Source of the DNA: a virus
Taxonomy: Duplodnaviria > Heunggongvirae > Uroviricota > Caudoviricetes
Direction: 5' to 3' (one strand)
Virus record (IMG/VR): IMGVR_UViG_3300045391_007586
Length of the DNA stretch: 64,000 nt
The translations under genes and the position numbers were made by a program. Below the pieces are notes generated by a model that saw only the letters and a list, made by a program, of their open reading frames with translations, made no database searches and was not told the DNA's origin. Positions 9,811 to 39,918 of this stretch are shown piece by piece. Position 1 is the first letter of the stretch. Each line of letters begins with the position of its first letter.

Positions 9811-9829
9811 CCCGCCTGCAAGCGCTATA

Positions 9830-9845
9830 CTGTATATCCATACAG
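9830..9845. promoter_or_regulatory. LexA (SOS) box, CTGT-N8-ACAG
   Basis: ctgtatatccatacag, within taCTGTatatccatACAGat, 7 nt upstream of the ATG at 9852. Confidence 0.5.
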
Positions 9846-9851
9846 ATAGCC

Positions 9852-10085
9852 ATGACCGACGATCCCCTTGAATTCTTCATGGAGCGAGCCGCCATCATCG
9901 AGTTCGATGGTGGATCGCCGCGGCATGAAGCAGAGTTTCGCGCTGCCGTGCTCACCGTCCGATTCTGCGACACGCGGGGCCTCGACAAGCCGGAGCACCC
10001 GCTGATCTGGTTTTGCACCCTGAATCGGGTATATTGGTCTGCGGAAACAGAAAAACCGGAAAGCGGCTGGAAGCCGTGGAGTTGA
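9852..10085 (+). CDS. hypothetical protein (77 aa), candidate SOS-regulated
   Basis: MTDDPLEFFMERAAIIEF...; LexA box immediately upstream. Confidence 0.4.
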   Translation: MTDDPLEFFMERAAIIEFDGGSPRHEAEFRAAVLTVRFCDTRGLDKPEHPLIWFCTLNRVYWSAETEKPESGWKPWS

Positions 10086-10113: not shown

Positions 10114-10500
10114 ATGAGAAGGGTCTTGAGCATGATCGTCGCCGGCACGATCGCTGTGTGTGCGGCGTCGTCGGTGCAAGCGGAGGATGAATCTCAAGAG
10201 GTCTACGCCGTCGCCTACGTGAACGGGAACCACTACCAGGAATACGATGTGACGACGCGCACCATCTACGTCATGGGCGTGGTGGACGGCTTGGCGGGGT
10301 CATTCACGATGGGCGGAAGCACGCGTCGAGCGAGCGCGCTTGGAGCGTGCTTGAAGGGCCTTCCGGGCGCCCAGGTGCGAGCGGTCGTCGACAAATACAT
10401 GACCGACAACCCTGCTCATTGGGACTGGTCCATGCCCATCCTCGTCTACAACGCCATCAACACCATGTGCAAAGAGCGCGGAACGCCTATCTACCCGTGA
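10114..10500 (+). CDS. secreted protein with signal peptide
   Basis: MRRVLSMIVAGTIAVCAASSVQA signal; GGAGCGGGGAG RBS. Confidence 0.55.
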   Translation: MRRVLSMIVAGTIAVCAASSVQAEDESQEVYAVAYVNGNHYQEYDVTTRTIYVMGVVDGLAGSFTMGGSTRRASALGACLKGLPGAQVRAVVDKYMTDNPAHWDWSMPILVYNAINTMCKERGTPIYP

Positions 10501-11167
10501 CCTGGCGAGACCGCCCAAACCCGAGCGCGGCGGGCCGGTCGTATTCCGAGTGCTTGATCTTGAGCCAGTCGCGCGAGCGGCCCTTCTGGTAGGTGGACTG
10601 CAAGCGCTTCGCCACCATGCCTTCCATGCCGTGCTCGATCACCTGCCCGAAGACCCATTCGCCGGCAGTGACGATGCTGCTCACGACGACAAGCGTCTTC
10701 GTGGTCTCCAGGCAATCGGCCAGGACTCGCTTGCGATCGACGAGCGGGAGCCCGCGAATGTCGCGCTTCCCGGTCGCCAGTATGTCGAAGATGTAAAGAC
10801 GCGCGGGATGCAGCGAGGCAGCAGCGCGCACGTTCGCTGACACCGATGTGCGTGCCCGGATTTGCAGACGGTCGAACGACGGTTTGCCCTTCGCATCATC
10901 GACGGTCAGCTCGGCATCGCACACGAACGATCCCGGCACCGCGGAGACGGCCGCAACGATGTCTGGAAATGAGCGATTGAGCGAATTGCCGTTACGGGAG
11001 ATCAGCTCGACGTGCTCGCCGGTCTTGCGGATCAGCGCCCTGAAGCCATCGTATTTGAGCTCGAACAGCCATGCAGGGTCCGAGAACGGGCTCTTGCGGA
11101 TGGATGCAAGCATCAGGTCGGTATGATCGATCGGACGTGTCAGCGGCACCCCAAGCGCCTTCGGCAT
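10487..11167 (-). CDS. lig: ATP-dependent DNA ligase
   Basis: KYDGFR (KxDGxR adenylation motif I) plus downstream ligase motifs. Confidence 0.8.
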   Translation of the reverse strand: MPKALGVPLTRPIDHTDLMLASIRKSPFSDPAWLFELKYDGFRALIRKTGEHVELISRNGNSLNRSFPDIVAAVSAVPGSFVCDAELTVDDAKGKPSFDRLQIRARTSVSANVRAAASLHPARLYIFDILATGKRDIRGLPLVDRKRVLADCLETTKTLVVVSSIVTAGEWVFGQVIEHGMEGMVAKRLQSTYQKGRSRDWLKIKHSEYDRPAALGFGRSRQVTGR

Positions 11168-11244
11168 ATGGCCTACCTTCTACCCGAAACCTGCCTTGCG
11201 CGAATGCGCTATATTTACTCGACCCACAGAAACGGGGAAAAATA

Positions 11245-11613
11245 ATGGGCAGGGTGAAGCTGACGAAAGAAGAACGATTTGCGCGTTGCCGCAATCAAGC
11301 CGCAACGCTTCGCAGGCACATCGCGCGGTGCGACCCTGCCACACAAAAGGACATTATCGCGAGGCTGCGTCGCGAATGCGAATACCTCGAAAAGAAGGCG
11401 GCAAATCTCGACCCGTCGAAGCCGAAGGATCAACGGCGCGAAAATCTTGTGAAGCCGAATGGCGCCCCAAAGACGCGGCAGGAACTTCTGCTTGAACAGA
11501 TTCGGCGGGAGCACGGTCCAAATGTCCAAATCGAGTTCGTAGTTGAGCATGAGCCGAAGTCTGTCTGGACTACCGGGCAAGCTGGTGGTCCCGGCACGGG
11601 CAAGCGTCGCTGA
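11245..11613 (+). CDS. hypothetical protein
   Basis: 122 aa from ATG at 11245 with GGGGAAAAA RBS; basic protein. Confidence 0.3.
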   Translation: MGRVKLTKEERFARCRNQAATLRRHIARCDPATQKDIIARLRRECEYLEKKAANLDPSKPKDQRRENLVKPNGAPKTRQELLLEQIRREHGPNVQIEFVVEHEPKSVWTTGQAGGPGTGKRR

Positions 11614-12023
11614 GCGGCACATAGCCCGCCGCAGGCGGGCGCCGGGGCGCGAGCTGCGCGGTCTTCGTGCCCACTTCCCCACGCCCCAACTACCCTTCCC
11701 CCTTCCCCACGCCCCTATGCCTGCATGCCAGGAGGTATAAGGAGCGGTGTGGCATGGTCCCGGCCCGGATGTATAAGGAGTCGATATTTGGCACCCGGAA
11801 CGAGGAAGGCAGGGCCTCCGCGCCCCTCGGCGTTTTCTAGGACTTTTTCCCTGGCATGTTGCCCTAGCGCGACGCCTCACACTTCCCGATCGGCGTCAAC
11901 CATTGCCGGCAAGTGTTGCATGCCTGTCACGGTTGACGCCTGCTCCAATTCTGCTTGCGTCTCGCTTGTCTCTACCGTATGCCCGGTAGCGATACCGGGC
12001 TATGTCTGTCTGCTTTGACTGAT

Positions 12024-12788
12024 TCACGCGAAGAGTTTAACGAACGCTTGGGCGCGCGGGTTGTCTGCTGCAATGCTCATTTCGTCGTTACGCTTGCCCT
12101 TCACTACTTGCGCAATGCCCATTTCACGCAGACACATACGCGTAGAGCCCGATTGTGAGCCCGCGGTCCCTACGCTGCTATTCATGCGACGCACAAGGGA
12201 GGCTTGCGGTTCAAGCTCGGTATATTCGACGTTACGGGACAGGGAGACCAAACCGTCTTTGATGCGCAAACCGCCCAATGCGCACAGGTTCTCTCCGATG
12301 GTCATTGTGTAACCGTCAAGCTCGCGTTTAATACCTTGCCCGATAGCACGCGCGGTAGAGACAATCTTAACGAGTGTTTTAACCGCAACGAAGTCAACCG
12401 GGTTTTGCTTGCGGTCTGCAATCGCGCAGTTTTTCAGCATACGTTCGAAAACTTCTGAAAATTCAGCACGGGCAAAGCATGCGTTAAACGCGGCCCGGTC
12501 CCGGATGACGTTCTTTGCTGCGGTTTCGGTATCAGCGCTCTTTACTTCGGTGTTACGCGCGACGAGGACCGCGTTAAACTCTGCTGCGAAGTCGCGCGGT
12601 TCGTTGGTCGTTTCGGGCTTGGTTTCGGGCTTTGCGGTTTCGTGCATGGTTGCGCCCTTGCCCTTTGCAGTGGAGCCCTTTGCTGCGCTCTTACGCGGTG
12701 CGCGTGCGGGCTTGGTTGCTGCTGCTGCGCTCTTTGCTGCTTCGATAGCTGCGAAAGTCGGGAAAACGAAAGCGTTAGCGGTTTGCAT
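12024..12788 (-). CDS. hypothetical protein, Lys/Ala-rich N-terminus (possible DNA-binding or initiator-like)
   Basis: 254 aa; adjacent to the iteron-like repeat region; motif 1 copy at 12869-12893 upstream. Confidence 0.5.
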   Translation of the reverse strand: MQTANAFVFPTFAAIEAAKSAAAATKPARAPRKSAAKGSTAKGKGATMHETAKPETKPETTNEPRDFAAEFNAVLVARNTEVKSADTETAAKNVIRDRAAFNACFARAEFSEVFERMLKNCAIADRKQNPVDFVAVKTLVKIVSTARAIGQGIKRELDGYTMTIGENLCALGGLRIKDGLVSLSRNVEYTELEPQASLVRRMNSSVGTAGSQSGSTRMCLREMGIAQVVKGKRNDEMSIAADNPRAQAFVKLFA

Positions 12789-13116
12789 GGTCGTATCTCA
12801 CACTGAGAGGGTTAGGGCACATCGCCCGGTTGATTGCGCTGTTTCGTTAGCGCATGTCGCTATCTTAGGTCAGTCAGTTGCGACTGACAAGGAATTTTTT
12901 CGTGTTGTTTTTGCGCGGATTGCTTGACGGCGTGTTTTGGCGGCGCTATTTGCGCGTGCGCGTCTGTATGTAATGGCGACAGGCGAGCGACCGGCGACCG
13001 GGTGGCGCGTGCGTAAGCGTGCGATGCGTGCCACCTGCCTGTCTCCGGTGCGCGTCGCGTGTCTGCCGTGGCTTTCGCGTGCGCCCTGCCCGCTTGCCAT
13101 TTGCCACGGATCACAT

Positions 13117-13236
13117 GCGCGTATTTTTCAGGAAAACGGATGTCGGCGCCGGCAGGCATTTCCGTGGCACCGGGCAGGCATGCGCGTATTTTCCAGGAAA
13201 AGGCGTGTCGCCGATGGCAGGCATTTCCACGGCATT
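13117..13236. repeat. tandem imperfect direct repeat (about 60 bp x2) with GCCACGGAAA / TTTCCGTGGC boxes
   Basis: gcgcgtatttttcaggaaaacggatgtcggcgccggcaggcatttccgtggc and gcgcgtattttccaggaaaaggcgtgtcgccgatggcaggcatttccacggc. Confidence 0.55.
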
Positions 13237-13363
13237 GCCACGGCACGCCGGCCACAAGACGAGAAACGTGCGTGGGCCATCCTTGTCTCGTCAGGTCAAC
13301 CACGCACGCGCTTAAAGGCAGTAGCTCAACACTTCCTCCAGTTCCGTCTTCTGTCCTTGCTGG

Positions 13364-13543
13364 TTACAGATACCGGTCGTCCTTCATCATGCGGCTGCGT
13401 CGAATGCCGGCGCGGGCCGCGCGGATCGTCTCCTGTTCTTGCAGCTCGTCGAGATACGCCATGTCGGCTTCGATGGGCATGGCACCGATGTGCGAGGTCA
13501 GGCGAGTGCGTTGGGCGATGGGCATATTGCGCAAGACGTTCAT
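13364..13543 (-). CDS. small hypothetical protein (59 aa)
   Basis: AAGGAG RBS 6 nt upstream of ATG; MNVLRNMPIAQRTRLTSHIG... Confidence 0.35.
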   Translation of the reverse strand: MNVLRNMPIAQRTRLTSHIGAMPIEADMAYLDELQEQETIRAARAGIRRSRMMKDDRYL

Positions 13544-13619
13544 GTTGACTTCTCCTTCTCTGGTTAGATTGTCGTTCAGTTACGACAGACACATTGTGCA
13601 ACCTGAAAACTGGCGATGG

Positions 13620-13820
13620 TCAGAACTTCACCGGCGACCTGAGCGAGGCGATACGCTTGGGCATGCGGCACTCGTCGCCGGTCCACCACTGGCGAATGCC
13701 ACGAGCCTTGTTGAACAGAATGTCGATCAGCCCGCACCACAACGCGCCAATGCCAACGGCTGCGCCAATCACGAGTGCGAATGCTGCGATCCATTGTGCC
13801 AACTCTGCTGCCTGGTTCAT
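13620..13820 (-). CDS. small membrane protein (66 aa)
   Basis: AGAGAGGGGAA RBS; MNQAAELAQWIAAFALVIGAAVGIGALWCGL. Confidence 0.4.
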   Translation of the reverse strand: MNQAAELAQWIAAFALVIGAAVGIGALWCGLIDILFNKARGIRQWWTGDECRMPKRIASLRSPVKF

Positions 13821-13994
13821 GTTCCCCTCTCTTGAAAGTCTGTCAGTTGCGACAGAACGAATATTCGCACCTGCCGCATGGATTGAGTGTGGCTTTCTTC
13901 TAGTCGCCGAAGGTAGAAAAACATCCTTGCCGTCGCCACGGCAAATCCGTGGCATTTCTTTCTCCCGGCACGCTCGCCGGGATGGTCCTTGCCG

Positions 13995-14144
13995 TTACGA
14001 CAGCGACGGCACCGTCCGATACGGGTCGATGCTCACCAGATTGCCCATGTCGTCCGTCGTGAACAGTCCGCCATGTCCATCCCACACCTTGTAGAGAAAG
14101 CCAAAACGGCGCGACAGGACAGGCAGCACTTGCGTGAATTTCAT
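13995..14144 (-). CDS. small hypothetical protein (49 aa)
   Basis: CAGAGGGGAAC RBS then ATG; MKFTQVLPVLSRRFGFLYKVW... Confidence 0.3.
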   Translation of the reverse strand: MKFTQVLPVLSRRFGFLYKVWDGHGGLFTTDDMGNLVSIDPYRTVPSLS

Positions 14145-14377
14145 GTTGTTCCCCTCTGGGTGGTTGCGTTTCGGTAGTCGTATGGTCACAAGCTCAATGA
14201 GGCAATGGTGCGGCGCGTTGCACGTTGCCGTGGCCCCCGCTGGATGTTCGCCGGGCTGGCAATGCCACGGAAAGCTCGCCGTTCGCCGCTTGCCGGGCCG
14301 GGTCCGCGTGCTACGCTCTCTGCATCACATCGACATGCGCTTTGCCGCCACCTGCCGGCGCCTCTCGCGTGAAAACT

Positions 14378-14495
14378 CCAGGAAAGGCGGTGTCGGCGTG
14401 CGCAGGCGTTCCGTTCGACCGCGTGCCGGTGCGTGCCAGGCTGTAAGGACTCGGCGGAAAGTGGATGTTGGCGATGGCGGAGGCCCATTGACGCT
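14378..14495. repeat. two further copies of the about 35 bp iteron-like repeat
   Basis: tccaggaaaggcggtgtcggcgtgcgcaggcgttccgttcg and cggcggaaagtggatgttggcgatggcggaggcc resemble the 13.1 kb repeats. Confidence 0.4.
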
Positions 14496-14569
14496 ATAAG
14501 GCAAACCCATCACGCCTTACATACCCCCTGCCCTACATGCCTCTATGCACACTCATCCACTCTCTGTCT

Positions 14570-14791
14570 CTATTGACTGACTGTCTGGCGAGGCACGTAT
14601 CCATCCTTCTCTTTCCGTATCCACTGTCTCGTCTCCTTGCTCCACGTGTAATCGTCATCCTCTCCGGGCATGTAGAAGTCGAGCGCCGCGAGTGCTCCGT
14701 GTCCGTAGCCTCTGTTGTTCATTGCGTCCGCGATCGTCTTTCCGGTGACGACTTCCTTGTCACCGCCGCGCCAGTAAAGCGTGAATTTCAT
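14570..14791 (-). CDS. hypothetical protein
   Basis: 73 aa; AGAGAGGAAGAG RBS. Confidence 0.5.
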   Translation of the reverse strand: MKFTLYWRGGDKEVVTGKTIADAMNNRGYGHGALAALDFYMPGEDDDYTWSKETRQWIRKEKDGYVPRQTVSQ

Positions 14792-14984
14792 GAGCTCTTC
14801 CTCTCTTACGTTGGAACTTGGAGTTCGACTTGGGGCCGGACGCGTCTTCTATATCTTTAATAACGCTTCACAACCTTTCTTTACTTAAAACTTGAAGGAA
14901 ACTCGGACTTGGAGTCGAGTTCTGGAGATTTCTCTCCGGCTTGAACAAAACTGCCCCGGTTTCCTGAAACCTTGTAGCGATTGC

Positions 14985-15260
14985 TTATACCGGGCAGGCT
15001 TGCGTGATCTCCCGGCGTGCGATCCGGCGTTTCACGTTCCTGATGGTCTGTGCCTGCTGGCGTTCGATCTCGCGATCTACGCTGGTCTGGAGTTTTCGCT
15101 CGAACGAGCGGTCGATCTCGGAGTCGATGATGTCCTGCACGCCGATGCTGAAGAAGTCTCTCCAGTCCGGGTCATAGGTGCGGGCGCCTTCCCTGATAAG
15201 GCTGTCGAACGCGGTGTAAGCCACAGTGCTTCCCTGCATGGTTGGTTCGGGCCGACACAA
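14985..15260 (-). CDS. hypothetical protein
   Basis: 91 aa ORF; start uncertain (alternative ATG at 15239). Confidence 0.4.
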   Translation of the reverse strand: MCRPEPTMQGSTVAYTAFDSLIREGARTYDPDWRDFFSIGVQDIIDSEIDRSFERKLQTSVDREIERQQAQTIRNVKRRIARREITQACPV

Positions 15261-15637
15261 TCTGTCATCGATGACTGATTGTTTCGTAAACCGGCAGGCG
15301 ACGCAAGTGTTTTTGTCAGGCGAAGCTGACTGATGGATTCGGGTCGTTTAAACGCGTTTTGAGCGGTTCGCGGTTCGGGTAATGTGTTGACCCTGACCGA
15401 TCGATTGGAGCCGCTTGTGGGTCGATCTGGTTGGTTCCAGCGGGTGCTTCGGTCGCTTAGATATGAACCCGAGAACAGGTCAAAAGTGGATTCCCAGGAG
15501 TCTACAAGCGATACAAGGTTTCATGCCGTGAAAACAGGCGAAAAGCCGTTTACATTCAACGACTTATCCGTGGCTTGGGCGGGGGAATTTTGAAACCGGG
15601 TCTACTGGCTGTAGGAACCCGGTTGAGGCTGGCGATT

Positions 15638-16027
15638 TCAGATGTGTTCTATGCCAATCCCCGCCACGACGCAGCCAAGAAGAAACGCGGCTACCGGCAA
15701 CCACATCAATACGATGGCGACCCAGATCCAGAACTTGGCTCGATAATCACCGCCAGGATACTCCAACCATCCACCTTGCATATAACGTGCAATAAACATT
15801 GATGGCACTGCAAGTGCGCCAATAACGAAAATTGCCAACGCCAAGAGCCCGAACGGCCTGAAGCTGGCAAATTGAGCTTGCTTTTGCACGAGAGCCTGCA
15901 AGAGGCCAAGCATTGCGACTGCGCCGCCACCATTCAGAATGGCAGAAGCCTTCGCGCTTTGAGTCGCGAAGTCGTTCATTTCGGATCGGAGAGCAAGGTT
16001 GCGCTCGTGCGCAAACTGCGTCCCCAT
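15638..16027 (-). CDS. membrane protein
   Basis: Trimmed to ATG at 16027 with AGAGGGGACG RBS; three TM helices. Confidence 0.5.
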   Translation of the reverse strand: MGTQFAHERNLALRSEMNDFATQSAKASAILNGGGAVAMLGLLQALVQKQAQFASFRPFGLLALAIFVIGALAVPSMFIARYMQGGWLEYPGGDYRAKFWIWVAIVLMWLPVAAFLLGCVVAGIGIEHI

Positions 16028-16057
16028 GTCGTCGTCCCCTCTTCTCATCTTCGATGA

Positions 16058-16300
16058 TCAGTGCAGGAAGAGCTTCGCGAGCGCAGCGCCAGCAGCGAGC
16101 AGACCGGCACCCGCACCCATGAAACCCGTGGCGTAGACGAGCGGCGCGTAGCGGTTCTCGCGCTCGATCTTGATCGTCTCCTGTGACACCTTCATCCTCT
16201 CGTCGATGATTTTGAGGATTTCGGCGTTCATCTTGGCGATCTCGGTTTCGGTCTTGACCGTATCCAAGCTCGGCTCCGGTGCGGTATGCGGTGTGCTCAT
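16058..16300 (-). CDS. small membrane protein
   Basis: Trimmed to ATG at 16300; C-terminal Gly/Ala-rich TM segment. Confidence 0.45.
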   Translation of the reverse strand: MSTPHTAPEPSLDTVKTETEIAKMNAEILKIIDERMKVSQETIKIERENRYAPLVYATGFMGAGAGLLAAGAALAKLFLH

Positions 16301-30143: not shown

Positions 30144-30374
30144 TCAGCCAAGCCCCAACGCAGCACGAATGTCCCGCTGCGCCTGCGCGTAGCCTTCGCC
30201 ATAAGCGATGTTGGCGATTCGGGCCGCTCGTTCGCAGTCTTCCATGTTGGAGAACCGTGAGTTCGGCGAAAGGGTGCCGCCGTAGTAGCTGCACTCCACT
30301 TGATGACACCCTGCCACATACGGCTTCCCTTCCGAGTCGTGTCCGGCCTTGAACGGGTCACGCTTGCTCATCAT
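30144..30374 (-). CDS. hypothetical protein
   Basis: 76 aa; ATGA overlap with the exonuclease gene. Confidence 0.5.
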   Translation of the reverse strand: MMSKRDPFKAGHDSEGKPYVAGCHQVECSYYGGTLSPNSRFSNMEDCERAARIANIAYGEGYAQAQRDIRAALGLG

Positions 30375-30949
30375 TCACTCCTTTCCGGCCACGCCGCGAA
30401 GATTGTCCAGTCGTTGTCGGGCTTGTAGAACCCGCGCTCCACGCCCGCGAAGAAGCACGCCATCATGCGCTCAACGTCATACTCTGCCCCGTGCGCTAAG
30501 GACGGGTCGTAGGGCAGATTGAGCGCGAAGCAGAGCTCGCCAAGACGCGGTGACTTCCCGTCTGGCGTCGCCCATCGCGCATGCGTCAACGTGCAGAATC
30601 CGATCAGGTCCGGCTTGACGTGCAGACCGAGGCGCTTGAGCTCGCCATTCGTGAACGGCGCGTCGAACCCGCCGTTGTGCATCACGATCAGGTCCGACTT
30701 GTTCAGCTCTTCCACGAGTTTCGGCGCCACGTCGACCCACTTGGGCATCCCGACCAGATCGTCGTAGGCGATCCCATGAACCGCCTGCGCCTTTGCATCG
30801 ATGGCGCGCTCGGGGTCGATGCGCGTCACGAACTTGTCCACGGGCTTGCGGGTATCGAAGTCGTAGTGCAGCAGGCCCACTTCGATGATCCGATGGCCGT
30901 CCACCCATTTCAGTCCGGTGGTTTCGGTGTCGTATCCTGAGACGATCAT
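30371..30949 (-). CDS. DnaQ-like (DEDD) 3'-5' exonuclease
   Basis: YDTETTG, HNGGFD and HGAEYD exo motifs. Confidence 0.8.
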   Translation of the reverse strand: MIVSGYDTETTGLKWVDGHRIIEVGLLHYDFDTRKPVDKFVTRIDPERAIDAKAQAVHGIAYDDLVGMPKWVDVAPKLVEELNKSDLIVMHNGGFDAPFTNGELKRLGLHVKPDLIGFCTLTHARWATPDGKSPRLGELCFALNLPYDPSLAHGAEYDVERMMACFFAGVERGFYKPDNDWTIFAAWPERSE

Positions 30950-31591: not shown

Positions 31592-32377
31592 TCACTTCAC
31601 ATTGACCATCGGGCGAACATCGCCAGTGCCGACGATCATGGTGCAGCCCTGATGCGAGGCGCACGCCTGCAACGCCATGTTGTATTCGTGTTGCAGGTAG
31701 GCCGGCGTGAGCGATTGCGTCAGCTTTTCGTTCGCCTGGGCTTCCTGCTCTTTCACCTGGACGAGCTGCTTGGCGGTCTGCACCTGCTTTTCAGCCATGA
31801 TCGAATTGCGGATCGCGTCCTCGACCGACGGGTCGGTGTGGATCGTCCGCACGATGACGTTCGTGACCGTGAACGTGTTCGGGTTGTCCTTGTCCAGCCG
31901 CGACTGCAACTCAGCCTTGATCATCGATTCCAGCGGGCCACGGTTCGTGTGCAGCGTCAGACTGTCGAAGTGCGACACGGAGTCGTTGATAACGCCCGAG
32001 GCGACGTTCTGGATCAAGACGTAGCCCGGACGCACGAAGCCCTCACCCGAGAGTTCGGCCGACTGGCCGGCGCGGCTCGCCTGGAAGTTCGGCAACGCGG
32101 CCGGGTTCGCGCGATAGTAGATCGTCACGTCCAAGTCCTTGAGCGTCAGGTTGTCCTTCGCCCGCGGAGTCAGCCCGCCGATGTCGACCGTCGTTTCCTT
32201 CGCCGTGTAGATCGTTAGATGCGACAGGATCGCGGTGTAGAAGCCTGGCTGCTCGACGGTCGGCTGAATCTGGCCGAATTGCGTGCGCACGCCGACCTCT
32301 CCCGAGTCGATGAAGCCGCAGCCGGTGAAGAAAAACGGCATCAGAACCGCCAAAACTACGAGAATGAGTCGCTTCAT
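31592..32377 (-). CDS. SPFH/band-7 (prohibitin-like) domain lipoprotein
   Basis: Lipobox FFFTGC; SPFH domain pattern (EVGVRTQFGQI...TKDNLTL.DLDVTIYYRA...). Confidence 0.8.
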   Translation of the reverse strand: MKRLILVVLAVLMPFFFTGCGFIDSGEVGVRTQFGQIQPTVEQPGFYTAILSHLTIYTAKETTVDIGGLTPRAKDNLTLKDLDVTIYYRANPAALPNFQASRAGQSAELSGEGFVRPGYVLIQNVASGVINDSVSHFDSLTLHTNRGPLESMIKAELQSRLDKDNPNTFTVTNVIVRTIHTDPSVEDAIRNSIMAEKQVQTAKQLVQVKEQEAQANEKLTQSLTPAYLQHEYNMALQACASHQGCTMIVGTGDVRPMVNVK

Positions 32378-33392: not shown

Positions 33393-33980
33393 TTAATTGA
33401 GCAGATCGAGGCAGCGCGAACGCAGCCACTTCATGTCGTCCAAGCTCGGACGCCGGCTCTGCGAGAATTTCATGGCCTCCGGGCGACCGGCCGGCAGGAA
33501 AAGATTTGACCGCGATTCCATGTCCTGGAACTGGTGCAGCCCAAGCAGCACTGGCTCGCCGACCGTCACTGCTCGCAACGTGTGAATGTCCGATGTGCTG
33601 TTGAAGTAGTGACTGCCACGACGATGCCGGGTCGCGTGCGGCACAAGTCCGGCTGTCGCGGCCGGACGGAACGAACGCGTCTCCGTGTGGTAGACATGCC
33701 GGTCCCATTCGCCGCCCTCGCGCTCGCCGAACTTGATCTCGTCGAGCTCGCCGGCAAGAACAACGGTGTCGAACGCGTAGCGGTGGGTATGCGGATGCAG
33801 AAGGAAGCCCGAGAAGTCGTTGGAATCGCGCTCGATCAGGTAGAGCTTGAGCGTGACCTTGGGGCTACGGTGAAGGCAGAGGTAGTGCATGCCGTCGATG
33901 ATGTGATTCATCACCGAATGGTTCATCATTTCAACGAGGTCCATTTCGGCAAGCATGGTCCGAGCCGATTGCGGTGTCAT
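33393..33980 (-). CDS. cupin-like / putative Fe-dependent oxygenase
   Basis: Trimmed to MTPQSARTML; LLHPHTHRY...H pattern suggests a metal-binding cupin; assignment tentative. Confidence 0.45.
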   Translation of the reverse strand: MTPQSARTMLAEMDLVEMMNHSVMNHIIDGMHYLCLHRSPKVTLKLYLIERDSNDFSGFLLHPHTHRYAFDTVVLAGELDEIKFGEREGGEWDRHVYHTETRSFRPAATAGLVPHATRHRRGSHYFNSTSDIHTLRAVTVGEPVLLGLHQFQDMESRSNLFLPAGRPEAMKFSQSRRPSLDDMKWLRSRCLDLLN

Positions 33981-34091
33981 GATCTCCAATTCCCTGAAAA
34001 GTGATGCGCTGACACTCAGCGCTGACTGATATTCTACAGAAAAAGAAAGACGACGCAAGCGCGTTTGACGGCGTTTGCGTCGTTGCCAGGT

Positions 34092-35474
34092 TCAAACCGC
34101 CTTGATCGGGATCGTGCGGCGCCGCGGTGTTTCTTCGTGCTGGAGCAGGTTGCCCCAGATGTCGCGGCGCTCCGGTGGCAGCGTGGGTGCGCCGATATAC
34201 GTCGGGATGAAGCCCGTCATCCGCTCAAAGCTCAGAGCGAACAGGACGATGTTGTCCGAGTAGGAGTTCGCGCACGAGGCGTTCCAGTAGTCCCCTTCGA
34301 GGAACATGCACGAGCCCTTGCAAAGCTGAAGCACCGGACAGCCCGAGCAGTTCGGCCGATTCCGCCAGTGAGCAGCTGAATGCACGCGCACCTGATCCAT
34401 ATCAGCGATGTTGCCGGCGCAGTGCGATGTGCCGTTCGGAGCCGTTTCCACAGCGCTCACGTTCTGGCAGGTCAGCACGTTGCCGCGCAGGTCGATCGCC
34501 AGCACATGCGGGTCATCCATGCCGCACTTCTGCCCCAGGAAGCGCGCCTCGCGATGTGAGAGGACGCTGCGTGTGAAGCTGTCGATCTTCTCAATGACGC
34601 CGGGAAAGCCAATGTCTCCGCCAGTCGAGTAGATGTCGTTGAACGCTTCACGCCGGAACGCGAAGTGCTCGGCTTTCGTATCCAGAGAGCTGCCGTATCC
34701 GCCTTCGTCGTAGGCGTCGACCACACTCCCCTCTCCGAGAATCACGTTCGGGTCGCCCGTGAACTTGACGAAAAACTCGTGGATCGCCTTGCGACTCGTA
34801 TTTGCGCGGTTGAGCATCGCATTGAAGGAAATCCGGCCAAGCGGCCTGAGCGCGCGATACAGACCGAGAATCGCCTCACGCGTCTCGGGCACTTCGAGAG
34901 GATCGGGGCCGCGCACGTGCTGACCCGGACCATCGTGCGAGATTGCAACCGCAAAGCAGTTGCCAATCAGCCACGACGCGATCTCTTCCGTCATCAGGGA
35001 GCCATTCGTGATGATGGAGTAGCGCGGCTTCGTCTTCCACTCCCGGAAACGTTCGTTGATGGCTTCCACAAGCGGACGCAAGGTCTTGATGTAGACCAGA
35101 GGCTCGCCGCCCCAGAATTCGATCTTGAGCCCCGCAGCCTCGTCAAATTCGAGCGCGTCCAGGCGACGCATGAAAGCCTCGATGTCCTTGCGGCTCGTCT
35201 CCGGTGGGCGTTCGACAAAGCGTTGCGAGCAATACTCGCAGGAGTAGTTGCACGAAAGCCCGAGCTGGATCTTCAGCAGGCGCACGTGACGCGACTTCGA
35301 GAGCGGCGCGTCGATCGAGAATGGAACCGCCTCGGGCCGATCTTCGACCCGCTGATCGGCGCCAGGATACTCGAACACGGTGCCATTCTCCGCGCGCAGC
35401 GTATTCGTCTCGTTGTCGTATTCGAATTTGGCTCGCGTGCCGTCCTGCTTGGCCGCGATGATTGTAAAGAGCAT
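34092..35474 (-). CDS. radical SAM enzyme with C-terminal SPASM domain (anSME-like peptide or protein maturase)
   Basis: CNYSCEYC (CxxxCxxC) radical SAM motif; C-terminal Cys cluster CSGCPVLQLCKGSC...C; ATG at 35474 with AAGGAG RBS formed by the last two codons (aag gag) of the upstream gene. Confidence 0.85.
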   Translation of the reverse strand: MLFTIIAAKQDGTRAKFEYDNETNTLRAENGTVFEYPGADQRVEDRPEAVPFSIDAPLSKSRHVRLLKIQLGLSCNYSCEYCSQRFVERPPETSRKDIEAFMRRLDALEFDEAAGLKIEFWGGEPLVYIKTLRPLVEAINERFREWKTKPRYSIITNGSLMTEEIASWLIGNCFAVAISHDGPGQHVRGPDPLEVPETREAILGLYRALRPLGRISFNAMLNRANTSRKAIHEFFVKFTGDPNVILGEGSVVDAYDEGGYGSSLDTKAEHFAFRREAFNDIYSTGGDIGFPGVIEKIDSFTRSVLSHREARFLGQKCGMDDPHVLAIDLRGNVLTCQNVSAVETAPNGTSHCAGNIADMDQVRVHSAAHWRNRPNCSGCPVLQLCKGSCMFLEGDYWNASCANSYSDNIVLFALSFERMTGFIPTYIGAPTLPPERRDIWGNLLQHEETPRRRTIPIKAV

Positions 35475-35476
35475 GG

Positions 35477-36472
35477 TTACTCCTTGATATGAAGGGCGCG
35501 CGCCGATTCCCATTCGAGCGCGGTGTAATCAAAGGCGAACTCGTTGACGCCGGCTCCGACCACGTAACCCTCAACGATGATTGGCGAGCCGCCCGTGACC
35601 GGCAGAAAGATCGGCGTTTGCGGATTGGCGTAAGCAAGGTGGGTCACTTCCCGCTCAACAAATCCGTCCAGGTGAGCGAACTCGACGCCGGGGCCACCCA
35701 TGAGCGAGTCGTTATCGCGAAGCCCGCCAATAACGCCCATTTCGACCTCGCGACGCCAGCGCTCCGGGTTGGCAGACCACCACCATTCACGCGCACCGCG
35801 GCGGGTCCAGAATGCGTGCTCTTCCGACCACGCGAGCGACCCGTCGCCAAACGCCATGAGACGGCGTGGGCCGACAATATCCACGTGCAGGCGCTCGACG
35901 CGAGCTGGCCCGAGCGGACCCATCACCATGTCGCCGGACTGGATTGTCTCAATGCGACGCCACGTGCGGTCAGCCATAAGAACGCGGCTACCGGCCACAA
36001 AGCAGCAGCAGGCGCAATCGCAGTTGCAGTTGCAGTTGTAGGAGGTCGCCCCGGTCGTGTTGCAGTTGAACGCGGCTGCGTTCTGGGTGCAGTTGTAGGT
36101 GCAGGCGCAGTTGCAGTTCGGCTGAAGCCAGGCGCGTGAGTCGCAGTTCGTGCAATTGATAGCGTTGCAGTTGTTGCAGTTCGCGCTATACGAGTTGCAG
36201 GCGAAGCAATTCGAGCACTGGATGTTGCCGCAATTGCAGTTCGTCGGGCAGTTGCCGTTTGAACAGTTCGCGCAGTTGTTGCAGTTTCCGTTGTTGCAGT
36301 TGCCGTCCACGTTGCGCTGATACCAGGCGCGACCGTGCAGCGAGTTCAGGTTCGCAACCCCGTCCTTCGTGTTGTTGCGAACCCAATTCATGTCCATGTA
36401 GGCGTTGGATGCCCATCCGATCTCGCTATCGATCTGCGAAAAATAGATGGTCCCACTAGCGGGAAGTGTCAT
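35477..36472 (-). CDS. Cys/Asn-repeat protein with C-terminal Hint (intein/hedgehog-like) domain; candidate rSAM substrate
   Basis: Residues about 56-168 contain more than 20 NC dipeptides (NCNNGNCNNCANCSNGNC...NCNCNCDCACC), followed by CFVAGSRVLMADRTWRRIETIQSGDMV (Hint N-terminal pattern). Confidence 0.7.
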   Translation of the reverse strand: MTLPASGTIYFSQIDSEIGWASNAYMDMNWVRNNTKDGVANLNSLHGRAWYQRNVDGNCNNGNCNNCANCSNGNCPTNCNCGNIQCSNCFACNSYSANCNNCNAINCTNCDSRAWLQPNCNCACTYNCTQNAAAFNCNTTGATSYNCNCNCDCACCCFVAGSRVLMADRTWRRIETIQSGDMVMGPLGPARVERLHVDIVGPRRLMAFGDGSLAWSEEHAFWTRRGAREWWWSANPERWRREVEMGVIGGLRDNDSLMGGPGVEFAHLDGFVEREVTHLAYANPQTPIFLPVTGGSPIIVEGYVVGAGVNEFAFDYTALEWESARALHIKE

Positions 36473-37656
36473 TGCAGTTTTTTCTCCAATGCAGTGACTC
36501 GCCGACGCAGCGTCTTGACCTCGGCACGCGCCTTCTGAATTTCGGCGCGCGTCTCAACCACGAATTCCTTCAGTGCCTCGATCAGCAGCGGCGAGAGCTT
36601 GTCGTAAGCCACCGTGTCGTATTCGACGCCATCTGGCGATACCGCCGTTGTCGACACGGCTTCCGGCAGCACACGACGCACGTCAGGCGACATGACCCCG
36701 ACATCGCGCTTGCCCGGCTTGCCGATGATTGCGTGATCGCGCCACGTGAAGCGCACGCCATTGAGTGACAACACGCTGTTGAGCGCGTCCTTGATAGGCT
36801 CGACGTCCTCTTTCAGACGCGGGTCCGAATACGCACCGATGTTCCCGGCTGCGATCATGTCGCCCGTGCCGGTGTTGACATACCAGCGCCAGGCAGAAGC
36901 GCTCCACCCGCCGATGCCGAAGTAGCCATCGGCGCGCAGGTGCATTTGCAGACCCCAATTGCTCTGGCACAGGAACGAGAGCGCCGCCACGTTACCGTCG
37001 CCCGTGCCGCCGTTGTTCTGGATGGTCATCGACGAAACGTTGCCGGAAGTCGTCGAGCCAGCGGTAGGCACACTCGTTACGTGGCCCGTGAACTGACCGC
37101 CAGCAACCGGGAAGTAGTTGGCGGGGTTGAAATTGCCGGTATCCCACGGGGTAGCGCTGCCGAAAACCGGCCGCACAGCGAAGGTCGCAACGTCATTCGA
37201 GCCATACGTGACTGGCGCTGTAGCCGACGAGAAGTCGCCGGCCGTAGCAGTGTTGCGCTGAAGGATCATCGAGCCGCCGCTCGAAATCCATCGGAAGCGG
37301 CCCGCACCGTTTGATTGAGTCGAGTCGAGCCACGCAAGCTGTGGCGCTGCGTAGTTGAGGGAGACCGTGCCAGTGTGCGTGCCGCCAGCCAGCGGCATAT
37401 AAGAAGCCGCCACGTCCTGCGCGAAGATCGGCGTCTTGTTGAAGTCGCACACGAGCATCCAGACGCTCGGCGAGGTCGACGTGAGTTGGTAGAGCTTGTT
37501 CAGGTCTGTGCGGAAGCACGGCATTCCCACATACAGATTCGTAGTGGGAAATGCCGTGCCGGCGTTGCAAGAAATCGCCGTTTCATCGTTCGCCAGCAAC
37601 AGGCTGAGCGAGCTAAGCAGGCTGGTGTTCGGATCGACGTTTGTGAAACTTTGCAT
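36469..37656 (-). CDS. tail fibre protein with C-terminal intramolecular chaperone (peptidase S74) domain
   Basis: C-terminal SDPRLKEDVEPI...coiled-coil typical of the self-cleaving chaperone of tail spikes/fibres; Gly/Thr/Ser-rich central region. Confidence 0.75.
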   Translation of the reverse strand: MQSFTNVDPNTSLLSSLSLLLANDETAISCNAGTAFPTTNLYVGMPCFRTDLNKLYQLTSTSPSVWMLVCDFNKTPIFAQDVAASYMPLAGGTHTGTVSLNYAAPQLAWLDSTQSNGAGRFRWISSGGSMILQRNTATAGDFSSATAPVTYGSNDVATFAVRPVFGSATPWDTGNFNPANYFPVAGGQFTGHVTSVPTAGSTTSGNVSSMTIQNNGGTGDGNVAALSFLCQSNWGLQMHLRADGYFGIGGWSASAWRWYVNTGTGDMIAAGNIGAYSDPRLKEDVEPIKDALNSVLSLNGVRFTWRDHAIIGKPGKRDVGVMSPDVRRVLPEAVSTTAVSPDGVEYDTVAYDKLSPLLIEALKEFVVETRAEIQKARAEVKTLRRRVTALEKKLQ

Positions 37657-37753
37657 ACGCTTTAGACGAGAATCTGTCAGTGTTGACTGATTCTATCACG
37701 CGGTTTAGGCAGCAAATATAAGGTTTGGACCAGGCCGGCGTAAATGCGCATGA

Positions 37754-38712: not shown

Positions 38713-39918
38713 TCACGCCCCCTTGACGCACAGGACTTGCTTCAGCGTGTGGACGACTTCGACCAGATCGGTCTGGTTCGCCATCACCACGTCGATCGGC
38801 TTGTAGGCGCCCGGAATTTCATCCAGCACCGCGTCATCCTTGCGGCACTCGACGCCGGCCGTCTGCGCCTTCAGGTCGTCCAGATTGAACAACTTCCGGG
38901 CCTTCGCGCGGCTCATCTGCCGCCCTGCCCCGTGCGAGCACGAGCAATAGGACTGCACATTGCCCTTGCCGCGCACGATGTAGCTGCGCTGGCCCATCGA
39001 GCCGGGAATGATCCCGAGATCGCCTTCACGTGCGCGAATGGCACCCTTGCGCGTAACCCACAGGTTCTTGCCGAAGTGGTTCTCCCGCGCAATGTAGTTG
39101 TGGTGGCAGTTGATTGCCTCCTGCGTGATCGAGAACTCAACCGGGATGTGACGGCGCAGCGCCGCGATCGTCGCATCCATCATGACGCGGCGGTTCTCCA
39201 GCGCATACTGCTGCGCCCACTCGACAGCCTTCACGTAGTCGTTGAAGTCTTCGGTGTCTTCCGGCAGATACGCCAGGTCAGCGTCGGGCAGGCGGATGAA
39301 GTAGCCCTCCATCGTCTTCTTCGCCTTCTCGATGAAGTAGCTGCCGATCATGTTGCCGATGCCGCGCGAGCCCGAGTGCAGCATGATCCACACATCCTCG
39401 TTCTCGTCGAGGCACAGTTCGATGAAGTGGTTGCCGGAGCCGAGCGAGCCGAGCTGGTGCCACGCCTTGTCGAACACCTTGTCGCCGAGCGCCTGCTTGA
39501 TGCAGGGCGTGTCGTGGAACGCTCGCCACAGCGGGTGGACGCCTATGTCGTGTCCAGGCGGAAGGTAGCCTCTCTCGTGAGACCCGCCAGCGCCGAGCGG
39601 CACGTCACGCTCGATCTGATGGCGAATTGCGGTGAGACTTTCCGGGAGATCGCTCGCCTTCAGCGACAGACGAACCGCGTTCATGCCACAGCCGATGTCG
39701 ACGCCGACCGCAGCCGGGATGATCGCCTTTTCGGTCGCGATGACCGAGCCGACCGTCGCGCCCTTGCCTGCATGCACGTCGGGCATCAGCGCAACGCCGT
39801 TGTGATGGATGAACGGCAGGCGCGCGATGTTCTTCGCCTGTTGCAGCGCTTCATCCTCAATATCGGTCGTCCATACCTTGATCGGACGGCCACCCTCTTC
39901 CTGAATGACTTGCTTCAT
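38713..39918 (-). CDS. rtcB: RtcB-family RNA ligase
   Basis: Conserved RtcB motifs including SHGAGR, HNGVALMPDVHAGKG and CHHNY. Confidence 0.85.
   Translation of the reverse strand: MKQVIQEEGGRPIKVWTTDIEDEALQQAKNIARLPFIHHNGVALMPDVHAGKGATVGSVIATEKAIIPAAVGVDIGCGMNAVRLSLKASDLPESLTAIRHQIERDVPLGAGGSHERGYLPPGHDIGVHPLWRAFHDTPCIKQALGDKVFDKAWHQLGSLGSGNHFIELCLDENEDVWIMLHSGSRGIGNMIGSYFIEKAKKTMEGYFIRLPDADLAYLPEDTEDFNDYVKAVEWAQQYALENRRVMMDATIAALRRHIPVEFSITQEAINCHHNYIARENHFGKNLWVTRKGAIRAREGDLGIIPGSMGQRSYIVRGKGNVQSYCSCSHGAGRQMSRAKARKLFNLDDLKAQTAGVECRKDDAVLDEIPGAYKPIDVVMANQTDLVEVVHTLKQVLCVKGA

Follow-up and report, generated by a model that had tools for sequence, protein, structure and literature searches.

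The SPASM enzymes PapB, NxxcB, and CteB form S–C bonds at Cys residues of short leader-containing peptides, on which they act via a recognition element. QhpD, also a SPASM enzyme, introduces several Cys thioethers into QhpC, a protein subunit and not a small secreted peptide; this substrate is an enzyme subunit, and the acceptor residues are Asp and Glu. The closest solved fold to the enzyme described here, anSME, acts on full-length proteins without a recognition element and oxidizes Cys to formylglycine instead of forming thioethers. The covalent cross-links known from virions are mostly self-catalyzed, such as the isopeptide chainmail of HK97. A self-removing C-terminal module of phage fibers is known in the Peptidase_S74 chaperone, which uses Ser-Lys chemistry and, to our knowledge as well as in the Pfam description, occurs only on fibers and spikes.

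Here, we analyzed a 64,000-nucleotide stretch of DNA from a member of Caudoviricetes (hereafter, the window), in which genes for a tail fiber, a 331-aa protein rich in Cys and Asn, and a radical SAM/SPASM enzyme follow one another. We estimate the probability that these three genes constitute a tail-fiber tip maturation module at roughly 55%.

The three-gene unit and its radical SAM/SPASM enzyme

The tail-fiber gene (36469–37656, 395 aa), the gene for the 331-aa protein (35477–36472, stop codon included), and the enzyme gene (34092–35474, 460 aa) form a tightly coupled unit on the minus strand, on which all features given below also lie. The ORFs of the latter two were both present at these coordinates. 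Direct reading of the first junction revealed an ATGA overlap at 36469–36472 between the stop codon of the tail-fiber gene and the start codon of the 331-aa gene (...CTG CAA TGA / ATG ACA CTT). At the second junction (...ATC AAG GAG TAA cc ATG), the 331-aa gene has AAGGAG as its two final codons at 35485–35480, its stop codon lies at 35479–35477, and the enzyme ATG is at 35474, with 5 nt (TAACC) separating AAGGAG from ATG. This arrangement confirmed the translational coupling, and AAGGAG is the Shine-Dalgarno sequence of the enzyme gene, as the initial annotation had claimed. A longer enzyme ORF starting from 35513 was rejected because the homologues begin at MxFxI... (corresponding to 35474) and because the Shine-Dalgarno sequence fits the start at 35474.

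A consensus scan detected a promoter-like site just upstream of the tail-fiber start (37715–37744; 9 of 12 matches) and a terminator-like hairpin, GCGCTGAGTGTCAGCGC, with a T-rich tail between the enzyme stop codon and the next gene (34006–34022). These sites are possibly the start and the end of the operon, and the position of the hairpin fits a three-gene unit. Although they bracket the unit, the counts of such sites were not above those in shuffles, and the two sites therefore hint at its limits without fixing them.

The first gene of the unit encodes a phage tail fiber with a self-cleaving S74 intramolecular chaperone at its C-terminus. Its product matched Peptidase_S74 (PF13884) at residues 277–334 with 43.5 bits against a cut-off of 22, as well as more than 25 PHROG tail-fiber families, and its N-terminus is homologous to those of fibers ending in NCNCNC-Hint or NCNCNC-COOH.

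The gene downstream of the unit, at 33393–33980, had been taken for a cupin-like oxygenase. It gave no Pfam match at E ≤ 5 and no PDB sequence match below E 0.4, and its sole match was phrog_8313, a family of unknown function. When it was compared with PF13759-like neighbors of other loci, the hhalign probability was 0.1%, and blastp found it in none of 154 viral loci. Between it and the enzyme gene lie 111 nt with the terminator-like hairpin. Having no profile support and not being conserved with the pair of enzyme and Cys/Asn-rich protein, this gene was placed outside the unit, and its assignment as an oxygenase was withdrawn. A 2OG-Fe(II) oxygenase (PF13759) is a partner in many other loci; tblastn searches of the window for this oxygenase, the Asp/Asn hydroxylase, and the accessory proteins of ~236 and ~280 aa gave no match at E < 0.3.

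The product of the last gene exceeded the cut-offs of both Pfam Radical_SAM PF04055 (35.7 bits; cut-off 29.5) and NCBIfam SPASM TIGR04085 (30.6 bits; cut-off 27), in agreement with the earlier description of a radical SAM enzyme with a CxxxCxxC motif and a C-terminal SPASM domain. It also matched phrog_1802 (E 3e-59). The CX3CX2C motif, CNYSCEYC, was located by a regular expression at residues 75–82 (35229–35252), and C75, C79, and C82 were invariant in 38 sequences. The SPASM domain (34272–34526) contains seven Cys, expected to hold two auxiliary [4Fe-4S] clusters, in the pattern C317-x13-G-x4-C336, C376xxC379x5C385x3C389, and C401. All seven were invariant, and no eighth conserved Cys was found. 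We take this number to fit an open Fe site at which a substrate Cys could bind, as in CteB. In Foldseek searches with the AlphaFold model (pLDDT 87.5), the top matches were anSME (4k39; E 7e-12, TM ~0.6), ChlB, CteB (5wgg), and TigE (8vpo). These profiles and folds identify the protein as a radical SAM/SPASM enzyme of the peptide/protein-maturase type.

The best NCBIfam partial matches were the thioether formers QhpD (TIGR03906; E 1.9e-22), of which the radical SAM core alone aligned, and PapB (2.2e-21), and CteB was among the top matches in both sequence and fold. The window's enzyme can be likened to these Cys S–C bond-forming enzymes. Unlike in PapB, NxxcB, and CteB, a winged-helix (PqqD-like) RiPP recognition element was not recognizable, and residues 1–28 were modeled as three beta-strands with no helices. 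All named NCBIfam equivalogs scored far below their cut-offs, namely QhpD (79.5 against 453), PapB (76.4 against 340), CcpM (62.5 against 500), anSME (TIGR03942; 44.3 against 349), and the SCIFF maturase (43.3 against 425), so the reaction could be new.

It is unlikely, in our judgment, that the enzyme is anSME-like, converting Cys to C-alpha-formylglycine, or that it performs other non-thioether chemistry, such as cross-linking of the two neighboring residues of each Asn-Cys unit, epimerization, or C–C bond formation. Its best structural neighbor is indeed an enzyme that modifies whole proteins without a recognition element, its homologues carry the database names "anaerobic sulfatase-maturating enzyme" and "AslB", and the low scores against the thioether-forming equivalogs point in the same direction. 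However, anSME has eight ligating Cys, whereas only seven SPASM Cys are conserved here; the sulfatase motif (C/S-x-P/A-x-R) is absent from the Cys/Asn core of the 331-aa protein; a reaction other than that of anSME is expected; and the top profile matches are thioether formers. In favor of a non-thioether reaction, the strict Asn-Cys adjacency in the core hints at dipeptide-local chemistry, and TqqB links adjacent residues (PMC9389541).

The 331-aa protein and its interchangeable C-terminal modules

The 331-aa protein had 389 homologues at E ≤ 1e-3 and no PHROG match. Its N-terminal domain (residues 1–56; 36305–36472) is conserved and free of Cys, with an AlphaFold pLDDT of ~90. The N-terminus MTLPASG... 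is conserved throughout the family, and the domain is retained in the variants that are short or carry S74, Hint, or CSKIIC modules. Neither this domain nor the core had a Pfam, NCBIfam, or PHROG match. We propose that it serves as an attachment/adaptor domain or as an enzyme-recognition domain.

The Cys/Asn core (residues 57–156; 36005–36304), the proposed substrate of the radical SAM enzyme, holds GNCNNGNC...NCNCGNIQCSNC...INCTNCDSRAWLQPNCNCACTYNC...YNCNCNCDCACC. All 26 Cys of the protein are within residues 59–157, and 19 of them are preceded by Asn. The 101 residues from 57 to 157 include 29 Asn, 19 Asn-Cys dipeptides, and 10 Cys-Asn dipeptides; the richness in Asn and Cys seen by the initial annotation was thus evident, but its count of more than 20 Asn-Cys in about 110 residues was slightly too high. 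C64, C110, N119, C120, N121, C122, and C128 were invariant, and in 154 family members Asn made up 70% of the residues preceding Cys. All six frames of the window together contain the ([ND]C)x3 motif only once. In related loci, 56 of 2625 ORFs near the enzyme had it, as against 0 of 5051 elsewhere, and it is not a chance occurrence. At the DNA level, the core showed no repeat-expansion structure, only short AAC-TGC codon runs. The pLDDT of the core was below 50, and we therefore make no claim on its fold, including a fiber-like one.

Tail-fiber tips are known to bind metals through repeated HxH motifs. The core might likewise bind metals, either as a metallothionein-like CxC array or as an axial ladder in a trimer, with the enzyme loading or folding the protein or in any case not cross-linking it; we consider this distinctly improbable. 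The CxCxCxC alternation would make all Cys point to the same side of a beta-strand, and such a ladder would have its analogue in the HxH iron sites of T4 gp37. Moreover, a 67-aa ORF of locus L158 has HTH just upstream of its CNCNCNCAC, and a cysteine-desulfurase-type gene follows the enzyme gene in locus L160. However, metal binding explains neither why a SPASM maturase-type enzyme almost always accompanies the motif nor why Asn is conserved before Cys, including the invariant N119 and N121, and we know of no SPASM enzyme that acts as a metal loader.

The C-terminal 175 residues (157–331; 35480–36004) are a Hint fold according to AlphaFold (pLDDT > 90) and Foldseek. CFVAGSRVLMADRTWRRIETIQSGDMV begins at Cys157 (36002–36004), the putative nucleophile, and His219 lies within SEEH at residues 216–219 (35816–35818). 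C157, F158, and H219 were invariant in 49 sequences, and the S/TxxH His was conserved, as in the Hedgehog C-terminal domain and BIL domains, which share the fold and cleave at their N-terminal junction alone. Among the 27 PDB matches at E ≤ 1e-3, the top ones were BIL2 (6y75; E 9e-7), the Prp8 intein, the Clostridium thermocellum BIL (2lwy), and Hedgehog (1at0), and all 50 PDB matches listed were BIL, intein (including PI-SceI/VMA1), Hedgehog, or Vint domains. The Hint domain proposed earlier was thus upheld by structure and by its conserved catalytic residues, but the Hint_2 (PF13403) match expected for it was not obtained in the Pfam search with the 331-aa protein. Hom_end_hint (PF05203; 22.6 bits against a cut-off of 32.1) and Vint (PF14623; 16.5 against 27) fell short, a difference from known Hedgehog and BIL domains, and the Hint-type alignments covered residues 157–194 only.

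Self-cleavage at Cys157 is plausible. An intein that catalyzes protein splicing was considered and discarded, because the chain stops ~25 residues beyond the final Hint strand and has neither a terminal His-Asn nor an extein downstream. Since the domain is at the extreme C-terminus, N-terminal cleavage alone would be possible. As a separate observation, relative P0013 has an extra insert with ...VHN|C.

Unlike Hedgehog and BIL domains, the window's Hint is joined to a proposed phage fiber tip directly after an (NC)n motif. The modules that follow the core in the family are interchangeable: none, Peptidase_S74, Hint, or a ~170-aa "CSKIIC" domain. In paralogues, the Peptidase_S74 chaperone, which is also carried by the window's own fiber, comes straight after the core at the same position as Hint. 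Like Hint here, it would be a self-removing module, but its fold is unrelated, which makes it a functional analogue and not a relative. Hint, or S74 in the paralogues, sits exactly at the position of the natural C-terminus seen in Burkholderiales prophages. The true tail fibers of these prophages end in ...NCNCNC(D/A)CC-COOH, with the enzyme encoded 1–3 kb downstream. In 49 of 55 prophage motif proteins, the chain ends within 6 residues of the motif, and Hint is carried by the two that have long tails.

Distribution of the enzyme and the Asn-Cys motif

In IMG/VR, a same-strand Cys/Asn-core gene accompanied 92 of 94 distinct relatives of the enzyme; in 79 cases, the distance was at most 60 nt. 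One exception was Achromobacter phage JWF, which has NCNCDCNCNCSC inside its fiber, and the other was a locus at a contig end. Conversely, 71 of 73 loci with the motif pattern had the enzyme, and both exceptions were at contig ends. In bacterial genomes, an ORF with ([ND]C)>=3 was found at most 4 kb upstream of the enzyme in 60 of 80 loci, and three further loci had motif variants, two with Ala and one with a QCxQC form. Thirteen others were at contig edges; of the seven unexplained loci, four had less than 2.4 kb of upstream sequence, and one with ample upstream sequence had no motif. The genomic coupling of enzyme and motif is thus near-obligate in both directions, and what had been suggested as a plausible substrate, the Asn/Cys repeat region, is very probably the substrate of the enzyme.

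In contrast, Hint was rejected as the partner of the enzyme, since no more than about 4 of the 154 viral loci and 1 of the 80 genome loci contained it. Hint is not part of the conserved system but one of several exchangeable C-terminal modules. A Hint-tipped fiber without the NC motif had no enzyme nearby (locus L157), and in L158 a Hint-tipped fiber was accompanied by the separate 67-aa ORF, ending in ACNCNCNCACSRGII, and an enzyme homologue. In these gene neighborhoods, the enzyme tracks the (Asn-Cys)n motif and not Hint. Recurrence in other phage genomes therefore held for enzyme and motif, not for enzyme and Hint. The enzyme–motif pair is not rare, although the combination had been thought unfamiliar in phages: the phages and prophages that carry it number at least in the hundreds. 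The enzyme family, which belongs to phrog_1802, occurs in sipho-, myo-, and jumbo phages as well as in many Burkholderiales prophages, and it comprises more than 3000 homologous clusters (90% identity clustering) at 57–64% identity. Full-text searches of papers readable without a subscription retrieved no literature on the enzyme and Asn-Cys system, and the pair seems never to have been studied.

In sipho-, myo-, and large phages, close relatives are encoded directly after tail-fiber genes. The T4-like aquatic phages differ: their pair lies away from tail fibers, among genes for 2OG oxygenase, desaturase-like, and Asp/Asn hydroxylase proteins, and after the core comes a domain whose C-terminal stretch is hydrophobic. 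This context fits a non-virion role, at least there. As a general account, however, a RiPP-like precursor whose N-terminal domain is a leader and whose Hint or S74 serves only the release of a non-virion product (toxin, signal, or host-surface modifier) is quite unlikely: the ~130-aa short forms do resemble long RiPP precursors, the L158 variant is a peptide of 67 aa, and the oxygenase gene clusters would suit such a product, but true tail fibers encoded after gpJ have this very motif as their C-terminus, S74 chaperones are known solely from fibers and spikes, the window's 331-aa gene overlaps the stop codon of the fiber gene, and the unit contains no signal peptide, transporter, or protease gene. 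A structural tail-fiber tip is more likely than the released RiPP-like product envisaged by the initial annotation, because the motif ends true fibers and the paralogues carry the fiber-specific S74.

A candidate route for tail-fiber tip maturation

In the proposed tip maturation, the 331-aa precursor would consist of the N-terminal adaptor domain, the (Asn-Cys)-rich core, and Hint, and the co-translated enzyme would act on the core in the reducing cytoplasm. NxxcB, PapB, QhpD, and CteB serve as the model: the thiolate of a substrate Cys would bind an auxiliary Fe-S cluster, and the 5′-deoxyadenosyl radical would abstract H from a neighboring residue, most likely at Asn C-beta. Thioether chemistry with an Asn acceptor (Cys-Asn) is the most likely outcome by this analogy: Asn C-beta is the thioether acceptor in NxxcB (PMC9389541), and SycC provides a precedent for the same acceptor (PMC10989515). 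Repeated formation of C–S bonds would yield a covalently knotted, redox-insensitive domain. Hint would then perform an N-to-S acyl shift at Cys157, and resolution of the thioester would remove it. The remaining protein of ~156 residues would end in ...NCNCNCDCACC, the same kind of C-terminus as the natural ends of the Hint-less tail fibers, and would be located at the distal end of the fiber encoded just upstream.

We infer the modification of the core by the enzyme from their coupling, and incorporation of the 331-aa product into the virion is suggested by its relatives among the fibers. However, the neighbors of the three genes in the window are replication and RNA-repair genes and not a tail module, which argues against a tail tip. 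Unlike that of QhpD, the proposed substrate is an Asn-Cys repeat in a phage fiber context, and the proposed substrates of the enzyme family are proteins of 130–600 aa with 5–31 Cys, in contrast to the short peptides of PapB, NxxcB, and CteB. A broader proposal, that a very large phage SPASM family cross-links (Asn-Cys)n at the distal ends of fibers, with Hint and S74 as disposable C-terminal maturation handles and perhaps with Asn-Cys-specific chemistry, is tentative, and we rate it at somewhat less than an even chance. If it holds, no earlier case would exist in which an enzyme installs a RiPP-type covalent modification on a host-recognition structure of a virion. The chemistry of the Asn-Cys dipeptides may be of an undescribed kind, for example cross-links between adjacent residues or between trimer chains.

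If tip maturation proceeds in this manner, phage assembly would gain a new principle, a dedicated radical enzyme by which the receptor-binding end of a fiber is hardened or shaped. Radical SAM "RiPP" chemistry would then also reach large structural proteins with up to ~30 Cys. Freshwater and soil phages and Burkholderiales prophages, including Burkholderia and Achromobacter phages of medical interest, carry the enzyme family in abundance. It could therefore have effects on host range, on particle stability, and on how phages or tailocins are engineered.

Gene organization and protein domains of the window unit

The ORF search of the window, a 64-kb part of a 174-kb JGI metagenomic phage contig, revealed four minus-strand ORFs arranged head to tail: a tail fibre gene (36469–37656; 395 aa), the gene for a 331-aa protein (35477–36472), the gene for a radical SAM enzyme (34092–35474; start listed as 35513 in the ORF search), and, after a 111-nt gap, an ORF of 195 aa, the most likely start of which is 33980. 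Reading of the sequence showed that the fibre stop codon and the start of the 331-aa gene form an ATGA overlap. The 331-aa gene ends with ...AAG GAG TAA. Because the enzyme ATG at 35474 comes two bases past this stop, the last two codons serve as the enzyme Shine-Dalgarno sequence, in agreement with the initial annotation. The enzyme homologues also start at the position equivalent to 35474. The three-gene unit is flanked by a promoter-like site (37744–37715) and a terminator-like hairpin (34022–34006), the frequency of which was not above that in shuffled sequence.

The 331-aa protein was divided into three parts. Residues 1–56 form a conserved N-domain (AlphaFold pLDDT ~90) without Cys. Residues 57–157 form a core (pLDDT <50) containing 26 Cys, 29 Asn, 19 Asn-Cys dipeptides, and 10 Cys-Asn dipeptides, in which Asn precedes 19 of the 26 Cys; the rest of the protein is Cys-free. 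The Cys/Asn-rich feature noticed initially is thus real, although the count of more than 20 Asn-Cys dipeptides was slightly high. Residues 157–331 were modelled with a pLDDT of >90 and matched only Hint folds in the PDB, namely Tetrahymena BIL2 (6y75; E 9e-7), the Prp8 intein, a bacterial intein-like (BIL) domain of C. thermocellum, and Hedgehog. Cys157, Phe158, and His219 (in SEEH) were invariant across an alignment of 49 homologues. The Pfam score alone was below the threshold (Hom_end_hint, 22.6 bits vs 32.1, over residues 157–191). Neither a terminal His-Asn nor a downstream extein is present in the protein. The only self-cleavage that the sequence would allow is at the Cys157 junction, as is the case for Hedgehog and certain BIL domains. 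The putative substrate family to which the 331-aa protein belongs is not covered by any Pfam, NCBIfam, or PHROG model.

The enzyme scored above the cut-offs of both Pfam Radical_SAM and NCBIfam SPASM. The CX3CX2C motif (residues 75–82) and a full seven-Cys SPASM motif were invariant in 38 homologues, and its proposed identity as a radical SAM/SPASM protein was thereby confirmed. The family corresponds to phrog_1802 and has at least 3173 clusters of relatives at E ≤ 1e-10, most of them 57–64% identical to the window enzyme and, where named, called "radical SAM/SPASM domain-containing protein" or "AslB".

Pairing of the enzyme with the (Asn-Cys)n motif

The main result is that, in viral contigs and bacterial genomes alike, the enzyme goes with the (Asn-Cys)n motif. 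A scan of IMG/VR with the enzyme yielded 222 relatives, and the best 80 loci were taken on together with Achromobacter phage JWF. In 78 of these 81 viral loci, the enzyme gene had a Cys/Asn-core ORF as its same-strand neighbour. When duplicate enzymes were removed, 92 of 94 were paired (40 upstream and 52 downstream; 79 within 60 nt); the two unpaired enzymes were one at a contig end and that of JWF, in which the fibre gp028 bears NCNCDCNCNCSC. The motif-first search of viral contigs with the pattern [WY][LFI]QxNCNC found 73 loci, many on contigs common to the enzyme-first set, and the enzyme was present in 71 of them, both exceptions being contig ends. The Hint domain occurred in only about 4 of 154 viral loci.

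Among species-representative bacterial genomes, 190 relatives of the enzyme were found, mostly in Burkholderiales (Limnohabitans, Polynucleobacter, Burkholderia, Polaromonas, and Rhodoferax), and 80 loci were examined for the motif. An ORF with ([ND]C)≥3 lay on the same strand within 4 kb upstream of the enzyme in 60 of the 80, and Ala-containing variants were found in two further loci. On a cyanobacterial MAG contig (locus L229), the ORF upstream of the enzyme homologue (1249–1638) has QCFQCYQCYQCYQC, a Gln-Cys variant replacing (NC)n. Thirteen other bacterial loci sit at contig edges, and four of seven unexplained loci have less than 2.4 kb of upstream sequence; bacterial locus L182 has ample upstream sequence, yet no motif. 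Of 2625 ORFs in the vicinity of the enzyme, 56 carried the motif, compared with 0 of 5051 other ORFs of the same loci; the six-frame translation of the window contained it once.

Position of the motif and its C-terminal modules

We interpret the (Asn-Cys)n motif as an element of the distal ends of tail fibres in phages; in the window it has been turned into a separate, expanded protein encoded straight after the fibre gene. The motif-bearing prophage proteins are true tail fibres: they come after gpJ, their N-termini are homologous to the window fibre, and some contain collagen-like repeats. The motif was located at most 6 residues from the C-terminal end in 49 of 55 distinct prophage proteins, with ends such as ...NCNCNCDCCC, ...NCNCDCNCC, and ...NCNCNCACDCW, and the two long-tailed proteins among the 55 were exactly the two with Hint after the motif. 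The gene order J, small gene, fibre-NCNCNCAC(T)-Hint gene, ~240-aa gene, enzyme, small gene, and endolysin is common to phage JWF and a prophage of Burkholderia territorii. The ~240-aa gene of JWF-like phages and prophages (8 of 80 genome loci) encodes a conserved protein without a Pfam match, and examples that follow the NCNCNC-Hint fibre and precede the enzyme are gp029 of JWF (L001, 7203–7925) and that of locus L155 (9466–10176); a different ~280-aa protein holds this slot in most other prophage loci (49).

Near relatives of the window protein that also carry Hint are encoded directly after tail-fibre genes on three other contigs: a temperate siphovirus-like one, a myovirus-like one, and that of a phage of 184 kb. 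Hint-tipped family members without the NC motif were also found. One of them (L157) has no enzyme nearby. On a 362-kb jumbo-phage contig (L158), the gene for a Hint-tipped fibre without the motif precedes a separate ORF of 67 aa that ends with ACNCNCNCACSRGII (9690–9893), after which come three radical SAM genes (10819–16092), one of which encodes a homologue of the window enzyme (28% identity, E 3e-33).

Burkholderia prophage fibres ending with NCNCNCACT-Hint (P0066, P0075, and relatives) were also observed. The genes around them (tape measure, L, K, I, J, and lysis genes) show that they are phage fibres, so that the name given to them in NCBI, 'shufflon system plasmid conjugative transfer pilus tip adhesin PilV', is probably wrong and owed to a weak match to Shufflon_N.

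The free-standing Cys/Asn-core family, which includes the window protein, comprised 103 representatives at 50% identity (E ≤ 1e-3), and its members are mostly 125–160 aa long. Family-wide, the core consists of 24% Cys and 22% Asn, with Asn before Cys in 70%. The C-termini were interchangeable among 154 distinct members: 60 carry a ~170-aa "CSKIIC" domain with a hydrophobic end, 54 carry Hint, 33 have no or a very short C-terminus, and 3 carry a Peptidase_S74 chaperone (29.1 bits vs 22). The CSKIIC domain, the commonest module after the core (L004, L005, L017, and other loci; homologues P0084, P0097, and P0120), has the pattern NCSKIICAKLxxxGMM...W.ADQ.YG...YRGY..WA..., followed by a hydrophobic stretch of ~20 residues, and has no Pfam match.

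Hint sits where the natural C-terminus would be, a place occupied in paralogues by the self-cleaving S74 chaperone, and is most simply read as a disposable C-terminal handle. Its removal at Cys157 would leave an ...NCNCxC end of the same kind as that of Hint-less fibres. Another Cys/Asn-core protein, P0013, has two consecutive Hint domains, of which the first is a canonical mini-intein inserted (CFDPDAPVLMADG ... STDDH ... VVDGFIVHN|C) just before the terminal non-splicing Hint.

Proposed chemistry and neighbouring genes

Each component of the system has known counterparts: the SPASM maturase and its putative Cys-rich substrate are comparable to QhpD/QhpC and to the ranthipeptide and sactipeptide systems, and Hint autoprocessing domains and S74-type fibres are likewise familiar. 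The enzyme probably forms multiple Cys thioether cross-links in the core, since the nearest NCBIfam profiles are those of the thioether formers QhpD and PapB. It is a member of no named equivalog, and it scored far under every such NCBIfam cut-off. No eighth conserved SPASM Cys was found among the 38 homologues, and the presence of seven, not eight, suggests that a substrate Cys binds to a cluster. In this respect, the enzyme resembles CteB, where a substrate Cys completes an auxiliary cluster, rather than anSME.

The solved chains nearest by sequence were 8vpo (TigE), CteB, and anSME, and the nearest by fold were, in order, anSME, ChlB, CteB, and TigE. The closest fold is that of a Cys oxidiser, not a cross-linker, which counts against the thioether reading; oxidation of Cys in the manner of anSME is nevertheless unlikely, given the profile matches and the seven conserved SPASM Cys. 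In the AlphaFold model, a small three-strand element is found at the N-terminus instead of a winged-helix recognition domain. The acceptor of the proposed thioethers is most likely the Asn C-beta, because Asn is conserved along with Cys and because radical SAM enzymes linking Cys to Asn C-beta are known, namely NxxcB (PMC9389541) and SycC (PMC10989515). During virion assembly, the reducing cytoplasm would leave a domain with 12–31 Cys without defined disulfides, and enzyme-made thioethers would fix the core topology before release.

The full-text literature search found no paper on the system, and the database names are hypothetical, "anaerobic sulfatase-maturating enzyme", and "PilV" for the Hint-bearing fibres. 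The enzyme-motif module occurs very widely and seems not to have been studied; if our reading is true, radical SAM protein chemistry operates at the end of the phage tail that recognizes the host.

The family may not always be fibre-bound, because in T4-like aquatic phages the enzyme gene and the following core-CSKIIC gene are located away from tail genes, amid genes for 2OG-Fe(II) oxygenase (PF13759), desaturase-like, and Asp/Asn beta-hydroxylase proteins. PF13759 genes were third neighbours of the pair in 54 of the 81 viral loci and Asp/Asn beta-hydroxylase genes were present in 39, with desaturase-like genes in L162 and L163. A PF13759-like gene was also the usual neighbour directly upstream of the prophage enzyme (47 of 80 loci; 3 of 9 sampled members match Pfam, E 2e-7). 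Phages with such oxygenase or hydroxylase neighbours may carry extra modifications, e.g., Asn hydroxylation. In locus L160, an Aminotran_5 (cysteine-desulfurase-type) gene (10320–11570) directly follows the radical SAM gene, and its product may supply sulfur for Fe-S clusters.

None of the PF13759 oxygenase, Asp/Asn beta-hydroxylase, and desaturase-like genes was found in the window. The 195-aa ORF (33393–33980), initially annotated as a cupin-like oxygenase, had no profile or PDB support, was unlinked to the enzyme in other loci, and showed no relation to any cupin or to the PF13759-like neighbour genes. It belongs to phrog_8313, and its nucleotide sequence is ~72% similar to that of a gene annotated as hypothetical in Bordetella phage PHB04.

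Non-structural genes lie on both sides of the fibre/enzyme unit, an unusual setting for a fibre gene. On the minus strand, the window encodes RtcB RNA ligase (38713–39918; 82% nucleotide identity to the PHB04 gene), an SPFH/Band 7 protein with a lipoprotein-like N-terminus (31592–32377), and a DnaQ-like exonuclease called from a sequence motif only (30371–30949). DNA polymerase and helicase genes were identified with PHROG, and two further ORFs look like putative ribonucleotide reductase and ThyX, judged only from their N-termini.
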